Source of the DNA: Escherichia coli
GTDB taxonomy: Bacteria > Pseudomonadota > Gammaproteobacteria > Enterobacterales > Enterobacteriaceae
DNA: 64,000 nt
NCBI RefSeq assembly: GCF_024700885.2
Contig: NZ_CP117016.1
Reading direction: 5' to 3' (one strand)
In this document: piece after piece, positions 44,401 through 58,203 of the stretch
Layout: every line of letters starts with the position of its first letter
Position numbering within the stretch: position 1 is the first letter of the stretch
The notes under the pieces: model-generated
The model's database searches: none
What the model saw: the letters and a program-made list of their open reading frames with translations, nothing else
Told to the model about the DNA's origin: nothing
Program-made: the position numbers and the translations under genes

Positions 44401-44790
44401 ATGATTGACGCTCATGACTTCACAAGATGGGTGCGCACACAGGACACCCGTCTGGCTCCCATTCTTCGGGGATTATTTGATCTCTACATTCGTGGTCGTG
44501 ACAACAGAGCACGCACCACAAAACCGGAGAATGTGGATACCCTTTATTTCACAGTAGACGACTGCTACCGCGTGGACTTCACACCACACGGACTGGCGTT
44601 GCACTGCCTGACACCGCACGGCGAATCACTGCTGGCGTATTACGACTCCCCGGCCTCCGTATTTGCGGCAATGCTGGCGCATCGCACTGCTGGCGGGTGT
44701 GCCTCGCTGAGTGAATACACCGCTGAGTTTAACCGCCTTTCCGCCCTCTTCTCGCAGGAGTGGCAGCGCGTGACGGGATACCAGCCATGA
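44401..44790 (+). CDS. hypothetical phage early protein (P2 B-gene position)
   Basis: 129-aa ORF immediately upstream of and overlapping the A gene start. Confidence 0.5.
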   Translation: MIDAHDFTRWVRTQDTRLAPILRGLFDLYIRGRDNRARTTKPENVDTLYFTVDDCYRVDFTPHGLALHCLTPHGESLLAYYDSPASVFAAMLAHRTAGGCASLSEYTAEFNRLSALFSQEWQRVTGYQP

Positions 44791-47627
44791 GTGAGTTTGC
44801 ATGGAGCTGGAATGAACCACGGCCAGCCATTGATCCGGCCAGATTTACGGAGCGCAGGCAGGAAACTGAAACCGACCTGCAACGCGCCATCCGTTACTAC
44901 CTTGAGGCAGACAAAAAGGCCCAAGAAGAACAGGAAGCGAAAGAGGAAGCCTTTTTCGCACAATCCGCCATGGGTAAAAAACTCATGGCATCCCTTGAGG
45001 AAGCCGGACAGCGTGAAAAGCTGGCACAAAGCATCATCAGTAAGCGCCGGGCAACAGAACAAGACCCGGTGGCCCGTGCCTTTGCCACACTGAAGGTGCT
45101 TCCCGTTTATCTGCGAGAACCCCTGAGCCGCCACCTCTCTTTCCTGCGCAAAAAACAGGAAGCCGATCGCCGGAAAGGCAAAAAGAGCTGGCAGGCGGAA
45201 CGCTATGCACGCGGAACCCTGCGCAAAATATTCGAACGTCTGGATCGCACTGACGGACGCTGGCTGACACAGGGTTATCGCTCCATTGCCGGACGCGAAC
45301 GCCTGGACGATTTGCTTTACCTGCCGCAGCTCAACAAACACCAGGTACAGACACTGGCCACCATGACGGCAGCAATGTTCAGTAGCACATTCGAAAAACT
45401 CTGCGATGGCTTTGGCGCGACCGATGGTGAGCTGACCATGGATGTAACGCTGAAGGCGTATCAGATGCTGGCCCGCATGGCGTTACATCTGCACGCCATG
45501 CCTCCACATTATGACGCACTGACAACAGATAGAGATCGGAGGAACGAACCGGACACAGAGCTGCTGCCAGGCGCAATCCTTCGCCTGACCTGTGCTGAAT
45601 GGTGGAAACGCAAACTGTGGCTATTACGTTGCGAGTGGAGAGAAGAACAACTCCGCGCCGCCTGTCTGGTTTCCAGAAAAACATCGCCCTATCTGAGCCA
45701 GGACGCGTTAAGCGAGTTTCGCGCACAGCGCGAGAAAACACGCGATTTCCTGAAAGGTTTCATGCTGGAAAACGAAGACGGGTTCACGATTGATCTCGAG
45801 ACAGTGTATTACGCGGGAGTAAGTAACCCGGTTCACCGTAAGGCAGAAATGATGGCCACCATGAAGGGGCTGGAACTTCTGGCCGAGGCCCGTGGTGACA
45901 AAGCGGTGTTTCTGACTGTCACCTGCCCGTCAAAATACCACGCCACAACAGAGAACGGTCATCCGAATCCCAAATGGAACGGGGCCACCATGCGCGACTC
46001 CAGCGATTACCTGGTTAACACGTTTTTTGCGGCGGTCCGCAAAAAACTGAACCGCGACGGTCTGCGCTGGTATGGCATCCGCACGGTGGAGCCTCACCAT
46101 GACGGCACCGTGCACTGGCATATGATGGTCTTTGCTCATCCGGAAGAAATCGACAGCATCGTGGCCATCACCCGCGATATTGCCATTCAGGAAGACCGCC
46201 ACGAGCTGGGCAATGATATTACTCCGCGCTTTAAGGTGGAGTATGTCGACGGCTCAAAAGGCACACCAACCAGCTATATCGCGACCTACATCGGAAAAAA
46301 CCTGGACAGCCGCGCCGTGGATGGCATCGACCCGAAAACGGGCAAACCACGCGTTGACCACGAAACAGGTAAATCAATGGCCGAGAGCGTGGAGCGCGCC
46401 ATCGGCTGGGCGCGCCTTCACCGGGTCCGCCAGTTCCAGTTCTTTGGCATCCCCTCCCGTCAGGTGTGGCGTGAACTGCGCCGCCTTGCCAGCCAGATGG
46501 CACGCAACCCGGAAGGCCCGCAACGGCTGAAGGATGACGCAATGGATGCGGTACTCGCTGCCGCTGATGCCGGGTGTTTTGCCTCCTACATTGAAAAACA
46601 GGGTGGCGTACTTGTTCCACGCAAGGACTACCTGATTCGCACCGCCTACGACCTCGCAGATGAGCTGAACGATTACGGCGAACAGAGCGTACAGATTTAC
46701 GGGATCTGGTCACCACTCATCGGGGAATCCTCCCGTGTGTGCACGCACCCGGATAACTGGAAGCTGGTAAGACGTAAACCGGAAGCGGAAGACAGCACCC
46801 GCGAAAATGATTTTGACCTTCAGGGCGGCCCTGCCGCCCCTTGGACTCGTGGCAATAACTGTCCCCGTGTACAGGAAACAGACAACAACGGGACAGAACA
46901 GCCGGAAGAACGGCCAGCACCGTGGCCGCAGCTCCCTGACGGCGTTGAAGTGAACGAATGGATGCATTCACTGAAACGGCACGAACGCCGGGCGCTGATG
47001 CGTTCGCTTCGTGACAAACAGGCAAAAAACAGCAGCGATGAAATGCAGAACTGGACACAGAGCCGCAAACAGCCACAGCCTTTACCTGATAACCACGAGT
47101 TACTCGCTAAAGAATGGCGGGAGTCTGCTGAATCTCTCGGCCTGCATATTGGTGAACAGCAGATGCAGCACCTGTTACGGGGCGGCAGTCTGTACGTTGA
47201 CGGCAGCATCATTGCACCGCAGGGATTTGAAATTGTACGCAAACCGGATACCCGCCCGGACAGCCGAATCACGCAGCTCTGGCAACGCCTGAGCCGTAAT
47301 CACGGCGTAAGCAGCACGGAGATCCGCCATAACCCGGTCGCCAGCTATCTGGAACAGCTGGGGGCATCAGACCCTGAAGCCGCCGCACGCCTGGCATCCA
47401 CACTTCAGCAAGACCAGAACACCATGAAAACCCCCGTTACCGTGCTTTCTGACATGCTGCGCGCCATCCGTGACGCAGAGCACGCACAGAGAATCAGTGA
47501 AACCACTGAACGCGCCCACCGCAAAGCAGACCTGCTGCGGGGTAGCCTGACCAGTGGAAACAAAAAACAGACAGAAACGGGACTCACAAATCCCGTAAAT
47601 GAGCAAAAAACGTGCCGCGATATATGA
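44787..47627 (+). CDS. P2 gpA-type rolling-circle replication initiator with long C-terminal extension
   Basis: 946 aa from MSEFAWSWNEP; HUH-type motif VHWHMMVFAH and downstream Tyr-containing region (YIATYIGKN) typical of P2/186 A proteins; last 200 aa or so is low-complexity. Confidence 0.8.
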   Translation: MSEFAWSWNEPRPAIDPARFTERRQETETDLQRAIRYYLEADKKAQEEQEAKEEAFFAQSAMGKKLMASLEEAGQREKLAQSIISKRRATEQDPVARAFATLKVLPVYLREPLSRHLSFLRKKQEADRRKGKKSWQAERYARGTLRKIFERLDRTDGRWLTQGYRSIAGRERLDDLLYLPQLNKHQVQTLATMTAAMFSSTFEKLCDGFGATDGELTMDVTLKAYQMLARMALHLHAMPPHYDALTTDRDRRNEPDTELLPGAILRLTCAEWWKRKLWLLRCEWREEQLRAACLVSRKTSPYLSQDALSEFRAQREKTRDFLKGFMLENEDGFTIDLETVYYAGVSNPVHRKAEMMATMKGLELLAEARGDKAVFLTVTCPSKYHATTENGHPNPKWNGATMRDSSDYLVNTFFAAVRKKLNRDGLRWYGIRTVEPHHDGTVHWHMMVFAHPEEIDSIVAITRDIAIQEDRHELGNDITPRFKVEYVDGSKGTPTSYIATYIGKNLDSRAVDGIDPKTGKPRVDHETGKSMAESVERAIGWARLHRVRQFQFFGIPSRQVWRELRRLASQMARNPEGPQRLKDDAMDAVLAAADAGCFASYIEKQGGVLVPRKDYLIRTAYDLADELNDYGEQSVQIYGIWSPLIGESSRVCTHPDNWKLVRRKPEAEDSTRENDFDLQGGPAAPWTRGNNCPRVQETDNNGTEQPEERPAPWPQLPDGVEVNEWMHSLKRHERRALMRSLRDKQAKNSSDEMQNWTQSRKQPQPLPDNHELLAKEWRESAESLGLHIGEQQMQHLLRGGSLYVDGSIIAPQGFEIVRKPDTRPDSRITQLWQRLSRNHGVSSTEIRHNPVASYLEQLGASDPEAAARLASTLQQDQNTMKTPVTVLSDMLRAIRDAEHAQRISETTERAHRKADLLRGSLTSGNKKQTETGLTNPVNEQKTCRDI

Positions 47628-47703: not shown

Positions 47704-48663
47704 ATGAAAATTTGTATCGACGACGGCTCCACCAACATCAAGCTGGCATGGACTGAGAACGGCGAACGCCGCAACGCCATCAGCCCGAACAGCTTCAAGT
47801 CGGAATGGTCTGCGCCGTTCGGTGGCACGCAGCCCGCGAACTACATGCTTGATGGCGTGCGCTATGGTTTTGATCCGGTCAGCGATCGCTTTATCCAGAC
47901 GACCGACACACAATACCAGTACAGCGATGTGAATGTCATTGCCATTCATCACGCGCTGGTCAAATCAGGCATCACGCCACAGGAGGTGGATGTGGTTGTC
48001 ACCCTGCCACTGAGCGAGTATTTCGACACAAACGCACAGCCGGACATGGCCAACATCAACCGCAAAAAAGCAAACGTTATGCGCCCGGTGGAATACCAGA
48101 ACGGCGAAGCATTCACTATCCGTAATGTACGGGTTATGCCTGAATCCATTCCGGCTGGCTTTAAAGCACTGGCTGACATGAGTCCGTTTGAATCCCTGCT
48201 GATTGTGGATTTAGGTGGAACCACGCTGGATGTGGCAAAGGTTCAGGGACAACTGGCAGGTATCAGCCAGGTGTTTTGCGATCCACACGTAGGCGTTTCC
48301 CTGATGGCCGATGCAGTACTGTCGGTGATGGCCACTAACGGTATGCGTACCAGTCACCACATCGCCAATACCATTATCGAACATCGCCATGATGAAGCCT
48401 GGCTGCGCCAGCACATCCACAATGACGCGCATTACGCCAGCCTGATGGCGGTTATTCGTGAAAAGGAAGAAACACTGAAACAACGCGTGATCCGCGCGCT
48501 GGCGGGTTTTTCGGGTTACGGGCGGGTGATGGTTGTCGGTGGCGGGGCGGAGATTGTGGCACCCGCTATCCGCGAAGCCTGCGGAGTTAATGCGACTTTC
48601 ATCGCGGACGGGGTGCCACAGTTTGCTCTGGTTAATGGGCTGTACGCAATGGACAAGGAGTAA
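47704..48663 (+). CDS. ParM/StbA-like actin-type ATPase
   Basis: 319 aa; actin-fold motifs IDDGSTNIKL (phosphate 1), DLGGTTLDV (phosphate 2), VVGGGAE (adenosine); collinear over full length with recalled plasmid R1 ParM (MLVFIDDGSTNIKLQW…YSDVNVVAVHHALL…VMPESIPAGY…DLGGTTLD…GGGAEL). Confidence 0.8.
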   Translation: MKICIDDGSTNIKLAWTENGERRNAISPNSFKSEWSAPFGGTQPANYMLDGVRYGFDPVSDRFIQTTDTQYQYSDVNVIAIHHALVKSGITPQEVDVVVTLPLSEYFDTNAQPDMANINRKKANVMRPVEYQNGEAFTIRNVRVMPESIPAGFKALADMSPFESLLIVDLGGTTLDVAKVQGQLAGISQVFCDPHVGVSLMADAVLSVMATNGMRTSHHIANTIIEHRHDEAWLRQHIHNDAHYASLMAVIREKEETLKQRVIRALAGFSGYGRVMVVGGGAEIVAPAIREACGVNATFIADGVPQFALVNGLYAMDKE

Positions 48664-48667
48664 ACCA

Positions 48668-48979
48668 ATGACGACACCAACCAGGCGGATAAGTTTCTAT
48701 CTGAAGCCTGCGGCCGTCAAGAACGAAAGCGAAGCATGCGCCTGGCTGGACAGCCTTACACCGGAAGCCCGCAAAAGCGGCCAACGCGTGGCTTTTCTGG
48801 CCGGGCTGGCACTTCTGAAAATGAATCCGGCAGAGGCTTACCGACTGGCTGCATGGGCTGACGATGAGGCGTTATCAGTGACACAAACCAGGACAGAACG
48901 CCCCCTGTCACAGCCAGTACCAACCGCACAGATAACCAGTCAGATGGCCGGAAATATCAGGGCGTTATTTCCTGAATAA
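48668..48979 (+). CDS. ParR-like DNA-binding adaptor
   Basis: 103 aa from MTTPTRRISFYLKPAA...; N-terminus resembles recalled R1 ParR (RRTIAFKLNPDV…LDSIP.GERS…AALTAGLALY); starts 5 nt after the parM-like stop. Confidence 0.65.
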   Translation: MTTPTRRISFYLKPAAVKNESEACAWLDSLTPEARKSGQRVAFLAGLALLKMNPAEAYRLAAWADDEALSVTQTRTERPLSQPVPTAQITSQMAGNIRALFPE

Positions 48980-48986
48980 CACAACG

Positions 48987-49006
48987 TCAGGGCGAGTTCG
49001 CCCTGA
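48987..49006 (+). terminator. hairpin TCAGGGCGA-GT-TCGCCCTGA after the parR-like gene
   Basis: Perfect 9-bp inverted repeat; no strong T-run, so terminator function is tentative. Confidence 0.35.
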
Positions 49007-49042
49007 TCTCCATCTCAGAACATAAACAAGAAGAGCGACTTA

Positions 49043-49426
49043 ATGAGCAAAATCAACTATCAGGCATTACGTGAACGTTATTCACCTGCACCAGTACCAA
49101 AATGCCCTATTTGCTGCGAAGAAATGTCAATTCAGCGAATATCTGGAGCACAGGTTGTTTATGGCTGCTCCGGTTATGGTGATGATGGAGATTTCAAAAT
49201 TGGTCGAACTCTTGCCGACGAACATTATGAAAAATCACGCGTAACAGTGTTGGATGTCGGGGATCCTGAAGTATTGGCGCTACTTGATTGGCTGGAAACC
49301 AAAGACAACCGAATCGCTGAACTGGAAAAAATCGCCACTGACTATGCACTTAAATTCCAGAAAGCACAGGACGCATTAAAGTACGCCGCTTTGCTGCATA
49401 GCAGGTCAGCGCAGCTACAAGACTAA
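49043..49426 (+). CDS. hypothetical protein with N-terminal Cys motif (CPICC...GCSGYG) and C-terminal coiled coil
   Basis: 127-aa ORF; lower GC than the phage backbone by eye; no family recognised. Confidence 0.5.
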   Translation: MSKINYQALRERYSPAPVPKCPICCEEMSIQRISGAQVVYGCSGYGDDGDFKIGRTLADEHYEKSRVTVLDVGDPEVLALLDWLETKDNRIAELEKIATDYALKFQKAQDALKYAALLHSRSAQLQD

Positions 49427-49454
49427 CTTAAAGCGGAAGATTAATACATGGTGA

Positions 49455-49481
49455 GTCGGGGTAATTTGTTTTTATCCCGAC
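49455..49481. terminator. bidirectional terminator hairpin between convergent island genes
   Basis: GTCGGG...CCCGAC stem with a T-rich loop and flank, between the plus-strand 127-aa gene and the minus-strand membrane gene. Confidence 0.45.
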
Positions 49482-49516
49482 AAATAAACAAAAAAGTGGA
49501 CTATCTCTGTAGTATC

Positions 49517-50047
49517 TTATTCAGCATCGTCTCGTGCAGTCTGTGCATACGTCACAACAACGCCCAATGCATTAGTTTTCTTTTCAACATAGATAATATT
49601 GTCATATTCATAGTTACCATACGGATAGCAAATAAGAATATTTTTATGCAGATCGGGATCATCAACAAACGCTCCGGAACAGCTTCTTGAACTACCGGAT
49701 GTATACTCATACGGTGCAACATATGATGATGTTACTCCTGGTAAAAAATAAGTCACCATCATAAGAGGGATAATCAGGAATATCCCTGTAAGAATGCAAG
49801 AGCCAGCATAAACCTTCAGGTATTCCGACAGTCCTTTCCAGCCACTTTGCTTCACTACCCCCCTCTTCACCAGAAACAAGGAGAAGAAAAAGGACATACC
49901 CATACTACATAAGATGTAATAATTGGATATACGCGAATTAAGATATGTAATCCTGTAGATATCTGCCCTCCACCAGTAAAAGAGGAAAATAATCCCTAGC
50001 ACTGAAACAGTCATGCAAATCAAATAAGGATATGAATCTTTCTTCAT
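49517..50047 (-). CDS. hypothetical low-GC integral membrane protein (moron-like)
   Basis: 176 aa; three predicted TM segments (YLICMTVSVLGIIFLFYWW, YYILCSMGMSFFFSLFLV, CILTGIFLIIPLMMVTYFL) then a roughly 70-aa soluble C-terminal domain; markedly AT-rich compared with flanking phage DNA (by eye). Confidence 0.6.
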   Translation of the reverse strand: MKKDSYPYLICMTVSVLGIIFLFYWWRADIYRITYLNSRISNYYILCSMGMSFFFSLFLVKRGVVKQSGWKGLSEYLKVYAGSCILTGIFLIIPLMMVTYFLPGVTSSYVAPYEYTSGSSRSCSGAFVDDPDLHKNILICYPYGNYEYDNIIYVEKKTNALGVVVTYAQTARDDAE

Positions 50048-50095
50048 GTCTTGCGCTCATTAAAATTTCCCTGCTACGAACAAATTTACCATCCG

Positions 50096-50250
50096 TTTTT
50101 TGCGCAGAAAACAGCACGATGCACACTGCACGATAGTGCACAAATTTGCACAATTTTTTTGAACGACTTTTTACCCTTCCGGCCCGCATGGCGGCTGGAT
50201 CCGTCAAGGATCCGTGCGTGCACAAAAAAACGCGTTTTTTCTGCGCGCAG
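50096..50250. repeat. structured non-coding region: inverted repeats GCGCAGAAAA/TTTTCTGCGC, TGCACA iterons, GGATCCGT x2 at 11-bp spacing
   Basis: Seen directly; lies where the cos/packaging site of P2-like phages maps (between the accessory island and the portal gene). Confidence 0.5.
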
Positions 50251-50526
50251 GTGACGGGGGAACAGCCCGCGTTTCAGGGGGTAAATAGTATTCCCTGAGC
50301 GATGTCGCAGCGACATAACAGAATGGCCATATTTCTCACGCTGAGCGTGAAAAAGATGTGAGGGCTTTTGATTTGATGGGGTGAAAGGTAAGGCCGTCAA
50401 AATCGAACTGAGGCGGTGAGAACATGCAGTCAGCGCGGTGGGATTGCGTAAGAGTCTGACCGTCGATGATGGTAATAAACAGGAAAGCGTCGTGAAATTA
50501 TCTGATTGATACAGGAGCTGGAGAGT

Positions 50527-50551
50527 CGGGGCATAAATTTTTTATGCCCCG
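50527..50551. terminator. strong hairpin CGGGGCATAAA-TTT-TTTATGCCCCG downstream of the portal gene
   Basis: Perfect 11-bp inverted repeat immediately past the minus-strand Q stop; probable terminator of the Q-P transcript. Confidence 0.55.
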
Positions 50552-50577
50552 GCGAAGCAGCGGACAAGCGAAGCGCG

Positions 50578-51624
50578 TCAGGATGTGGGCTGGGTGTCTA
50601 ACAGTGCGTAAGGGTTAAAGCGAATCACCTCTTCGCCAAGCCAGTCATTGATGTGCTTCATGGCCTCCATGACGGGCATCAGCTCGTTAATTGCGTAAAC
50701 CCGCGCGGCCTTCTCCACATCACCAAACGCACTTTTTTCGCCTGGCATCGCCCCCATCAGTTGCGGCGGAACGCGGTGCGCAGCCAGCACATCATCACGG
50801 GATGCCACCTTAACATTCATGAACTCATCCTTTGCGGTGATCTGCTGGAACGGCAAAATTTGCACCCCCTCTTTGCCACCGTTGGGCGCATGAATGAGCA
50901 CGTTTTTAAACGCACCACCACCACGTGCACCCTGTAGCGTTTCTTTCAGGGAGTCCATGCTTTCGCGGTTTACCTGCGCTGCACCGATGTAGATGATGCA
51001 CCCGGCGTGGGATCCGTTGTCGTAATACAGTTTTCTGAACATGTCCGCCGAATGAGACAGGCTGGCCGAGAGTAATGCGCCGAGATATTCCGGCATGCCG
51101 TAGATTTCCTGGTTAATGTCAGGATTCATCAGGTGGCACACTTTGCCAGGGCGAAACTGAAACGCGTCCTTGCCATCCTGCACATACCACCATGATTCAA
51201 GATCGCTTCCGCGTCGCATGTATTTCGCCAGGGCGTGCCGTAATTTAAGCGGTTCGCCGAGCATATTGCTTCGAAGCTCAAGGAATGCGTTACCGAACAC
51301 AAACCAGTCCAGCGCCAGCGCCGAGAAATCCTGCCGGGAAAGCAACGGGTGCGGGATGTAGCAACCGAGTAATACATTGCGCTTAAAGTAAAGCGCAGAC
51401 TGATGCCAGGACGTTTGCCGGGCAGCTCTTGCCAGACCGTACCAGTCCACCGGGGTTTCATACCACCGCCCGTTATCAGCACAGTACATATTGTCCAGCA
51501 GGTCATGCCCGGTCAGGCGATAAGGACCATCAAATGTGAATGCACTGAGCGATGATTCTTTCCTGAGCGCATCAGCGAGATCAATGCGTGAACTCATGCG
51601 CACTTTTTTATTTTTTCTACTCAT
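50578..51624 (-). CDS. portal protein (P2 gpQ-like)
   Basis: 348 aa; position and orientation as P2 Q; stop overlaps the terminase start. Confidence 0.8.
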   Translation of the reverse strand: MSRKNKKVRMSSRIDLADALRKESSLSAFTFDGPYRLTGHDLLDNMYCADNGRWYETPVDWYGLARAARQTSWHQSALYFKRNVLLGCYIPHPLLSRQDFSALALDWFVFGNAFLELRSNMLGEPLKLRHALAKYMRRGSDLESWWYVQDGKDAFQFRPGKVCHLMNPDINQEIYGMPEYLGALLSASLSHSADMFRKLYYDNGSHAGCIIYIGAAQVNRESMDSLKETLQGARGGGAFKNVLIHAPNGGKEGVQILPFQQITAKDEFMNVKVASRDDVLAAHRVPPQLMGAMPGEKSAFGDVEKAARVYAINELMPVMEAMKHINDWLGEEVIRFNPYALLDTQPTS

Positions 51625-57410: not shown

Positions 57411-57799
57411 GCAACACATTTAAATTCAGCAGCCGGAGCGAAAAGAATTTGCAGGGCGTAAATCCTGATCTGGTGAAAGTGACCCGACGGGCACTGGAAA
57501 TTTCGGAAGTGGATTTTGGTATCACCGAAGGGTTGCGCAGCCGTTACCGCCAGAAGCAACTTGTGGCCACAGGTAAGAGCCAGACCATGAACAGCCGCCA
57601 CCTTACGGGACATGCCGTGGATGTTGTGGCTTATATCGGCAGCCAGGTGTCATGGGAATGGCCGCTGTACGAAAAAATCGCAGCCGCATTCAGACAGGCC
57701 AGCCGGGAACTGAATATTCCGGTGGAATGGGGCGGCGACTGGAAGACCCTGAAAGACGGACCGCATTTTCAGTTACCACACGGAGCCTATCCGGCATGA
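57407..57799 (+). CDS. endolysin, peptidase-M15-like zinc peptidase
   Basis: 130 aa; His/Asp zinc-site pattern (HLTGHAVD...DGPHFQ) typical of L-Ala-D-Glu peptidase endolysins; P2 K is a lysozyme, so this is a module replacement. Confidence 0.7.
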   Translation: MSNTFKFSSRSEKNLQGVNPDLVKVTRRALEISEVDFGITEGLRSRYRQKQLVATGKSQTMNSRHLTGHAVDVVAYIGSQVSWEWPLYEKIAAAFRQASRELNIPVEWGGDWKTLKDGPHFQLPHGAYPA

Positions 57800-58203
57800 A
57801 GCTCTGGCCAACGCTTGGCGTCGCTTTCCTTCTGATTGTCGGATGGGGAACATCCATGCGTCTGTCATGGTCGCTGGGCCGGGAGAACGCCAGAAACGAA
57901 GCGCAGGCCAGCACCCTGAAACGTACCGCCGACACCCTGAATATCATCAGCGCCGGGGTACAGGATATGCAGCAGGTGCTGGCGCAACTCCGCGTGGAAA
58001 ATCAGCAACGCAATCAGGACGGAGAGGCAAGACGTGAACAGCTACGCAACGATATTGCAAAAGATGAATGCGCCCACGCTTTGCCTGACGCTCGTTTTAC
58101 TGACAGGCTGCGCAGGCACGCAGAACGCGCTACGGCCAGCGCCGTCAGTCCGGCTTATACCGCAGACGCTGACCATACCGGTAACGCCTCCCCCCTTCCC
58201 TGA
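57796..58203 (+). CDS. i-spanin (Rz/LysB-like)
   Basis: From MKLWPTLGVAFLLIVGW; N-terminal TM then coiled coil; ATGA-coupled to the endolysin. Confidence 0.65.
   Translation: MKLWPTLGVAFLLIVGWGTSMRLSWSLGRENARNEAQASTLKRTADTLNIISAGVQDMQQVLAQLRVENQQRNQDGEARREQLRNDIAKDECAHALPDARFTDRLRRHAERATASAVSPAYTADADHTGNASPLP

Follow-up and report, generated by a model that had tools for sequence, protein, structure and literature searches.

The closest described relatives of the gene considered here are the ea22 genes of phage lambda and of the Shiga toxin (Stx) phages. According to one study, the Ea22 proteins of both favour lysogeny over lysis (PMC7093339). A second study reports that full-length lambda Ea22 is a tetramer and its C-terminal domain, the structure of which has been solved by nuclear magnetic resonance, is dimeric and inactive alone; such C-terminal domains are swapped among phages, and a conserved loop in the lambda domain has been proposed to contact a host partner (PMC10834534). 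For the Stx phage 933W an ea22 gene split by an insertion has been described (PMC8614690). Here we report on an ead/Ea22-like gene of 127 amino acids (aa) that lies on the + strand at positions 49043-49426 of a 64,000-nucleotide stretch of Escherichia coli contig NZ_CP117016.1 (assembly GCF_024700885.2), referred to below as the window. The gene is part of a P88-like prophage and has lost its 3' end to a cassette replacement. We regard it as highly probable that it is a truncated ead remnant, cut by this cassette, which is most likely non-functional or partly functional and drifting.

The open reading frame (ORF) begins with ATG at the start used by all homologues (MS[KE]I[ND]YQALRE), and both the leader MSxI(N/D)xQALRE (residues 1-11) and the motif P..VLxLLDE (residues 75-85) are present. 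The Pfam model PF13935 (Ead/Ea22-like) matches it with E=1.1e-27, residues 2-117 aligning with positions 1-111 of the 139 in the model, and PHROG 368 matches with E=6e-26; for an intact allele of the gene (P0001) the PF13935 match is E=4.8e-31. A search of 5.8 billion proteins returned 283 homologues at E<=1e-3, nearly all of the named ones being ead/Ea22-like proteins, with Escherichia, Shigella and Salmonella as hosts. All of the top 50 matches listed by Foldseek against AFDB50 were Ead/Ea22-type phage proteins. The ORF is a member of the Ead/Ea22-like family (PF13935, InterPro IPR025153), and the word "orphan", used for it in a preliminary description of the window that was made from the sequence alone, has to be withdrawn given these matches and the occurrence of the exact sequence on 168 public contigs. 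The possibility that the frame is open by chance and was never coding can be given practically no probability, in view of the strong hidden Markov model (HMM) matches to the family, the hundreds of homologues and the invariant residues described below. The NCBIfam scan of the ORF gave a weak match to topoisomerase I zinc fingers and nothing else useful, a family-profile sequence search of the PDB gave coiled-coil noise only (E>0.5), and no Rfam family was found around the ead locus.

The window is 100% identical to the chromosome of E. coli E-1246 (NZ_CP025573.1), for which we used the RefSeq annotation of the Prokaryotic Genome Annotation Pipeline (PGAP); there the gene is listed as an ead/Ea22-like pseudogene, "incomplete; missing C-terminus". 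The closest homologues are 196 aa long (591 bp) and are 94-96% identical over residues 1-124, after which approximately 70 residues are absent from the window protein. As the intact reference we took the locus of strain OkiPb01679 (L003), which has an intact ead and no membrane gene. By blastn, window positions 48908-49413 correspond to L003 2929-3434 at 96.4% identity, and homology then breaks off to restart at 50126. Collinearity with intact 196-aa alleles extends over 49043-49413 (+ strand) of the ORF, a segment of 123 complete codons (1-123) that ends after the second base of codon 124. Between the breakpoints, which were placed from blastn and from junction alignments against L003, the window carries an AT-rich cassette of 712 bp (49414-50125, no strand assigned) in place of 258 bp of L003, and those 258 bp include the 3' end of ead. 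The GC content of the cassette is 35-42%, compared with 52-58% for the phage backbone, and its contents are the last 13 nucleotides (nt) of the ORF, a downstream hairpin and a convergent membrane gene. In these last 13 nt the codons CTA CAA GAC TAA encode L-Q-D and the stop, giving the protein the end ...AQ-LQD. The ORF therefore stops three codons past the breakpoint, and the variable C-terminal domain, with its usual AAGI(K/R)xxGE-type end, is absent; for this reason the ORF is classed as a truncated rather than a complete member of the family. The missing C-terminal coding sequence was not found elsewhere in the window. When the cassette ends were inspected for direct or inverted repeats as signs of transposition, only short matches were seen, of a kind that often arises by chance.

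Ead has been truncated by cassette replacement, and the direction of the change can be judged from two intact copies. In phage P88_4B11 an intact 591-bp ead is the last annotated gene and is followed by the final 84 bp of the linear record; together with the intact L003 locus, this means that the intact form is most simply read as ancestral. The ancestral state would then be a 591-bp ead, encoding 196 aa, as the last gene before the portal gene, and this arrangement would have been kept in P88_4B11 and apparently in most of the approximately 130 complete E. coli genomes that have this ead allele but not the truncated junction. The arrival of the 712-bp cassette with its convergent membrane gene would have removed the 258 bp that include the 3' third of ead, so that the ORF would run 13 nt into foreign DNA and its product would lose the variable C-terminal domain while keeping the N-terminal module and about 50 residues of helix.

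With a replication endonuclease gene (44787-47627) on one side and the portal gene (50578-51624) on the other, the locus occupies the interval from gpA to gpQ, where Rousset et al. (PMC9122126) described a cos-proximal hotspot for the cargo of P2-like phages. The preliminary description was right in stating that the ORF is not a P2 core protein, since it is cargo in this hotspot of a P2-family prophage. That a known family has a truncated member at an established cargo hotspot is in itself ordinary and is already explained by public annotation; this gene arrangement is also already listed in the survey of P2-like hotspots (PMC9122126). Mildly new are the exact breakpoint and a near-invariant CCCH tetrad in a subfamily of Ead/Ea22 proteins. 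The breakpoint shows cargo turnover at the cos-proximal hotspot in the form of a cassette replacement that cuts a resident gene.

Among the known proteins, the 196-aa P88-like alleles (WP_001289969.1, and VUD40217.1 of Xuanwuvirus P884B11) are encoded at the same site after parM/parR, with the same spacer and hairpin. In comparison with these, the window allele is without the last ~72 residues (QTNNFAVSLPDISEYFINDVFQPLRYERDVERAIIKAGGKALWQEKH...), has three foreign codons and carries the change G25C. Lambda Ea22 (NP_040612.1) belongs to PF13935 like the window protein and has the same leader (MSxINxQALRE) and the P..VLxLLDE motif, after which there is a coiled coil, predicted in the case of the window protein; both genes are located within the early gene string of a temperate phage. 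Between the leader and the motif, however, lambda Ea22 has only ~21 residues, whereas a 63-residue Cys/His module is found here. Furthermore, the C-terminal domain of lambda Ea22 has no counterpart in the 127-aa protein, and its gene is sited in the exo-xis region of a lambdoid phage rather than in the gpA-gpQ hotspot of a P2-family phage. The Ea22 of Stx phage 933W (NP_049469.1), which is a mosaic that combines an N-terminal insert and a coiled coil with a C-terminal domain that can be swapped, also shares the leader and the P..VLxLLDE motif. Its insert is 63 residues long as well (KATKGSYIVGHTSVNQHG...) but shows no sequence relationship to the Cys/His module, BLASTP aligning residues 1-16 only. 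The possibility that the 63-residue insert of the 933W/Stx protein is the Cys/His module was rejected, as the translated 933W insert proved to be a different sequence. The 933W insert (phage 933W, L006 4103-4876) has cysteine and histidine residues of its own, namely C40, C54, H55 and C58. The family is thus a mosaic in which no fewer than three N-terminal inserts alternate: the ~21-residue segment of lambda, the 63-residue segment of 933W and the 63-residue Cys/His segment.

The Cys/His module itself recurs in ES18 gp41 ("similar to P22 eaD"), which is encoded in the early-left ea region, in the ST64B Sb32/33 region and in the 91-kb E. coli phage-plasmid D6, at 59-72% identity over 85 aa; these proteins differ from the window protein in being longer, in having other C-terminal domains and in belonging to other phage types. 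Approximately 41 places on E. coli plasmids of ~100-125 kb also have ead/Ea22-like genes, with the module at ~84% DNA identity, an example being NZ_CP019027.1 at 57663-57864. The presence of the module on plasmids and on phage D6 means that it circulates among lambdoid, P2-like and plasmid-borne elements.

In the window protein the N-terminal Cys/His module comprises residues 12-75 (49076-49267, + strand), as delimited by conservation, by elements of the AlphaFold2 model and by sub-threshold zinc-ribbon matches. A profile made from residues 1-85 was searched against 1.84 billion cluster representatives and matched 424 clusters at E<=1e-3, with 197 of these at E<=1e-10. With few exceptions, the module starts no more than ~30 residues from the N-terminus in the 150 best matches, and the proteins that carry it are ~94 to 363 aa long if a small number of shorter fragments is disregarded. 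Residue conservation was determined from 135 aligned representatives of 50%-identity clusters. The four putative zinc ligands, all on the + strand, are C21 (49103-49105), C24 (49112-49114) and C42 (49166-49168), each conserved in 99% of the representatives, and H61 (49223-49225), conserved in 100%; P19, G44, G54, R55, D59, Y62, S65, D74 and V77 are conserved in 98-100%. The preliminary description had singled out the motif CPICC...GCSGYG in a 127-aa ORF. Both the ORF and the motif exist as described, CPICC being residues 21-25 and GCSGYG residues 41-46, although the motif is in part specific to this allele, because position 25 is Gly in 93% of the representatives. Within GCSGYG the only near-invariant residues are C42 and G44 (both 99%), and G41 is conserved in 76%.

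The AlphaFold2 model, built from a 55-sequence alignment, has a mean predicted local distance difference test score (pLDDT) of 75.6 for the 127-aa protein and consists of a helix (residues 6-13), a beta-hairpin (29-34/37-41), a second helix (57-65), a strand (67-70) and a long helix (75-126). Along the module, a CxxC(G) knuckle and a beta-hairpin are followed by a third Cys and, on the helix after it, by a His. Zn_ribbon_recom (PF13408) gave sub-threshold matches, with a best E of 1.5e-3 and with E<=0.1 in 19 of the 63 members scanned, and further weak sub-threshold matches were to Zn_ribbon_Top1, the DUF2089 and PADR1 ribbons and YdjO. The NCBIfam match of the ORF to topoisomerase I zinc fingers had E=0.0032, below the family threshold, and the weak zinc-ribbon similarity as a whole falls within residues 18-54. 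No HMM match to a zinc-ribbon family was significant, all being below the family thresholds, and no significant structural neighbour of the N-terminal module was found. The zinc-ribbon domains (PF13408, PF01396, PRK14973) have in common with the module the CxxCG knuckle, the beta-hairpin and the third Cys; they differ in that the fourth ligand here would be a His placed 19 residues after C42 on a helix, and not part of a second CxxC. Since the CxxC(G)/Cys/His pattern is conserved and is accompanied by weak zinc-ribbon matches, we infer that the module probably contains one structural zinc site of the CCCH type, formed by Cys21, Cys24, Cys42 and His61. The zinc binding that had been suggested earlier is thus plausible, with four conserved candidate ligands and sub-threshold ribbon matches, but the residues involved would differ from those of the quoted motif.

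The C-terminal parts of the subfamily are very diverse. In the 63 long members scanned, DUF551 was found in seven and a dATP/dGTP pyrophosphohydrolase domain in one, and most were without a Pfam domain. The accessible portions of the three Ea22 papers (PMC7093339, PMC10834534 and PMC8614690) contain no description of the Cys/His module. The subfamily with the CCCH tetrad is large and belongs to the long-neglected class of phage "ea" genes. It is conceivable, although quite improbable, that the module marks an unrecognised zinc-binding Ead/Ea22 subfamily acting as a modular sensor-effector in lysogeny control or inter-phage conflict, with the truncated form still active as a decoy or dominant-negative protein.

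By analogy with Ea22, the intact ead product would be an oligomeric accessory protein in which a coiled coil joins a zinc module to a variable C-terminal domain. It would probably be expressed early or in the lysogen, and would tune the lysis-lysogeny balance or host physiology via a host partner. The "regulator" proposed earlier is likewise no more than an analogy to lambda and Stx Ea22, which shift the phage towards lysogeny (PMC7093339). The product of the window allele would be at most a zinc module and a shortened helix, with the knuckle glycine damaged.

Population counts were made in 5426 complete E. coli genomes, an ead allele being counted when it covered >=80% of the 371 shared nt. 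The allele is present in 209 genomes, the truncated junction in 76, and the membrane cassette, at >=99% identity, also in 76. At the L002 locus 1 nt is deleted from ead, at ORF nt 217, and PGAP annotates the gene as both frameshifted and incomplete. In an evenly spaced sample of truncated alleles, four of 13 were shorter by 1 nt and one was longer by 1 nt. These frameshifts in other truncated alleles suggest decay. The window allele itself is free of them and has the G25C change (C25, 49115-49117, + strand), which is confined to the window sub-lineage (P0121); Gly is found at this position in every intact allele and in P0122, the truncated sister allele. This glycine comes directly after the CxxC pair, in the manner of a CxxCG knuckle. 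The truncated ead is most likely a non-functional or partly functional remnant that is drifting.

Several observations weigh against this interpretation. With the exact 127-aa sequence on 168 contigs and the sister 127-aa allele P0122 intact on 128, most truncated copies are still open. In a further 127-aa variant (P0008) a recombinant N-terminal sequence is joined to the same truncated end, which means that the truncated architecture persists. The frameshifted truncated copies may share one origin event, and the differences between the window allele and the intact allele (5 synonymous and 5 non-synonymous) are too few to have the power to show relaxed selection. With regard to the role of the intact protein, lambda and 933W Ea22 have in common with the ORF only the first ~10 residues (~16 in 933W), the P..VLxLLDE motif and the predicted coiled coil, and since the N-terminal inserts differ, the transfer of the pro-lysogenic function is weak.

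An ORF that is open on ~300 contigs in two allelic forms might also encode a functional short isoform, for whose activity the zinc module and the coiled coil would suffice, or a dominant-negative or decoy protein that co-assembles with the Ea22 proteins of co-resident prophages by way of related coiled-coil sequences. The recombinant N-terminus of P0008 on the same truncated end would fit such a protein, as would the fact that residues 9-85, the most conserved part of the family, are present whole in the truncated form. The split ea22 of 933W and the preserved pro-lysogenic role in lambda and Stx phages, as reported in PMC8614690 and PMC7093339 respectively, are also in its favour. However, some truncated alleles have acquired added frameshifts, G25C hits a 93%-conserved glycine, and the C-terminal domain, which is lost here, is the part that varies in the family and that in lambda Ea22 holds the proposed host-partner loop (PMC10834534). 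In addition, no other Ea22-like gene was found in the 64-kb window. We consider the short isoform unlikely; a selected short isoform ranks below a remnant that is non-functional or functions only in part.

The preliminary description also noted a coiled-coil tail. A long helix or coiled-coil segment is indeed predicted by AlphaFold2 at residues 75-126 (49265-49420, + strand), with block-mean pLDDT values of 82-93 for residues 81-120. The coiled-coil part of the claim is less firm, as a crude heptad test over residues 76-124, in which 79% of a/d positions were hydrophobic compared with 40% elsewhere, was weakly significant, its value being reached by 187 of 2000 shuffles. The predicted helix is shortened by the truncation. 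By analogy with the tetrameric lambda Ea22, the retained helix would be part of an oligomerising coiled coil.

Hairpins had been reported on both sides of the ORF, and both are present. The first is located in the parR-ead spacer (48986-49007, + strand; 9-bp stem, -16.4 kcal/mol, z -4.06), within the segment that is common to intact-ead loci, and was terminator-like on the - strand only in our scan. The second lies between the convergent ead and membrane ORFs (49455-49481, + strand; -15.4 kcal/mol, z -2.35) and is part of the inserted cassette, not of the ead gene. No U-tract follows the first hairpin on the + strand, and none follows the second on either strand. Since a + strand U-tract is missing, neither of the flanking hairpins is a canonical intrinsic terminator, so that the earlier observation holds for their presence only. 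With regard to the earlier suggestion that the ORF may be its own transcription unit, the parR-ead spacer yielded no sigma-70-like promoter, and its hairpin has no U-tract on the + strand. Because there is neither a promoter-like site nor a canonical terminator between the genes, intact ead is probably co-transcribed with parM/parR.

The genes surrounding ead are those of a P88-like prophage (Xuanwuvirus, Peduoviridae, P2 family) and include the replication endonuclease, ParM, a ParR-like protein, the portal, the terminase and the GPO scaffold. As the preliminary description had it, the ORF sits between a partition pair and a membrane gene: parM (47704-48663, + strand; PHROG 691 at 3e-90) and the parR-like gene (48668-48979, + strand; PHROG 2515 at 1e-57), both so named by PGAP, are upstream of ead in the same orientation, and a 176-aa ORF is downstream. 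Approximately one quarter of P2-like phages carry a partition system and may be kept as plasmids (Rousset et al., PMC9122126). The site is exactly the gpA-gpQ hotspot (PMC9122126), which raises the question of whether intact ead, and possibly also the remnant, is an anti-phage defence or counter-defence gene. The modular build of the family, in which proteins of 94-363 aa combine a conserved N-domain and a coiled coil with C-terminal domains that vary widely, and a GC content below that of the phage backbone would be compatible with this. On the other hand, the hotspot also holds non-defence cargo such as partition systems and toxins (PMC9122126), and the family is found in the early-left "ea" region of lambdoid and P22-like phages, not in defence islands. 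Furthermore, a PADLOC-DB scan (E<=0.1) gave no match for ead, the membrane protein, ParM or ParR, and the phenotype reported for Ea22 concerns lysogeny (PMC7093339). A defence function is therefore given a low probability.

The membrane gene of the cassette (49517-50047, - strand) is convergent with ead and encodes a predicted 176-aa membrane protein with three hydrophobic segments and a C-terminal domain of ~75 aa. It matches PHROG 1416 (unknown function) with E=1.6e-45, and no match was found among the Pfam, NCBIfam and PADLOC models. A 78%-identical membrane paralogue is present at another locus in 83 of the 5426 genomes. In the one copy inspected (L004) the paralogue protein is 80% identical and also 176 aa long, and its gene adjoins two pseudogenes, one of a YqaJ recombinase and one of an IS4 transposase, with torI and dsdC a few kb away. 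PGAP flags the window gene as "frameshifted" in E-1246 over an annotated span of 49517-50092, the ORF being 531 bp. Since this ORF is full length when compared with both WP_000711113.1 (L002 locus) and the 80%-identical 176-aa paralogue, the flag is doubtful and looks like an annotation artefact. The membrane gene may be a moron or a superinfection-exclusion-type gene.

A two-gene functional module would be suggested by the position of the ORF next to the membrane gene and by a junction that recurs in 76 genomes. The two genes are, however, transcribed convergently, and each is found without the other: ead is without the membrane gene in L003 and in P88_4B11, and no ead is annotated in the stretch around the paralogue in the L004 copy inspected, one of the 83 genomes that carry it. 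The numbers also disagree, with the ead allele in 209 genomes and the cassette junction in 76, and the junction falls inside the ead reading frame. A two-gene module is accordingly hardly credible. The suggestion that the 127-aa protein is a partner of its membrane neighbour fails for the same reasons, since the genes occur independently and it was the arrival of the cassette that cut ead; comparison across genomes revealed neither co-orientation nor consistent co-occurrence of the pair.

On the portal side of the cargo, a conserved non-coding region of 450 bp (50126-50577, no strand assigned) extends to the portal gene, and more than 1200 E. coli genomes have it at ~95% identity; its first position is the point at which homology with other P88-like prophages restarts. 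The P2 cos sequence was not found around the ead locus, which means that the cos of this phage type differs or sits elsewhere. At the other flank, the gpA-like replication endonuclease ORF extends from 44760 or 44787 to 47627 and encodes 946-955 aa, of which the C-terminal third is rich in charged residues and low-complexity stretches. An ORF of this length is much longer than P2 gpA. Within the conserved non-coding region there is a terminator-like hairpin with a T-run at 50136-50151 (+ strand), and a perfect 11-nt inverted repeat at 50527-50551 lies just beyond the portal stop codon.

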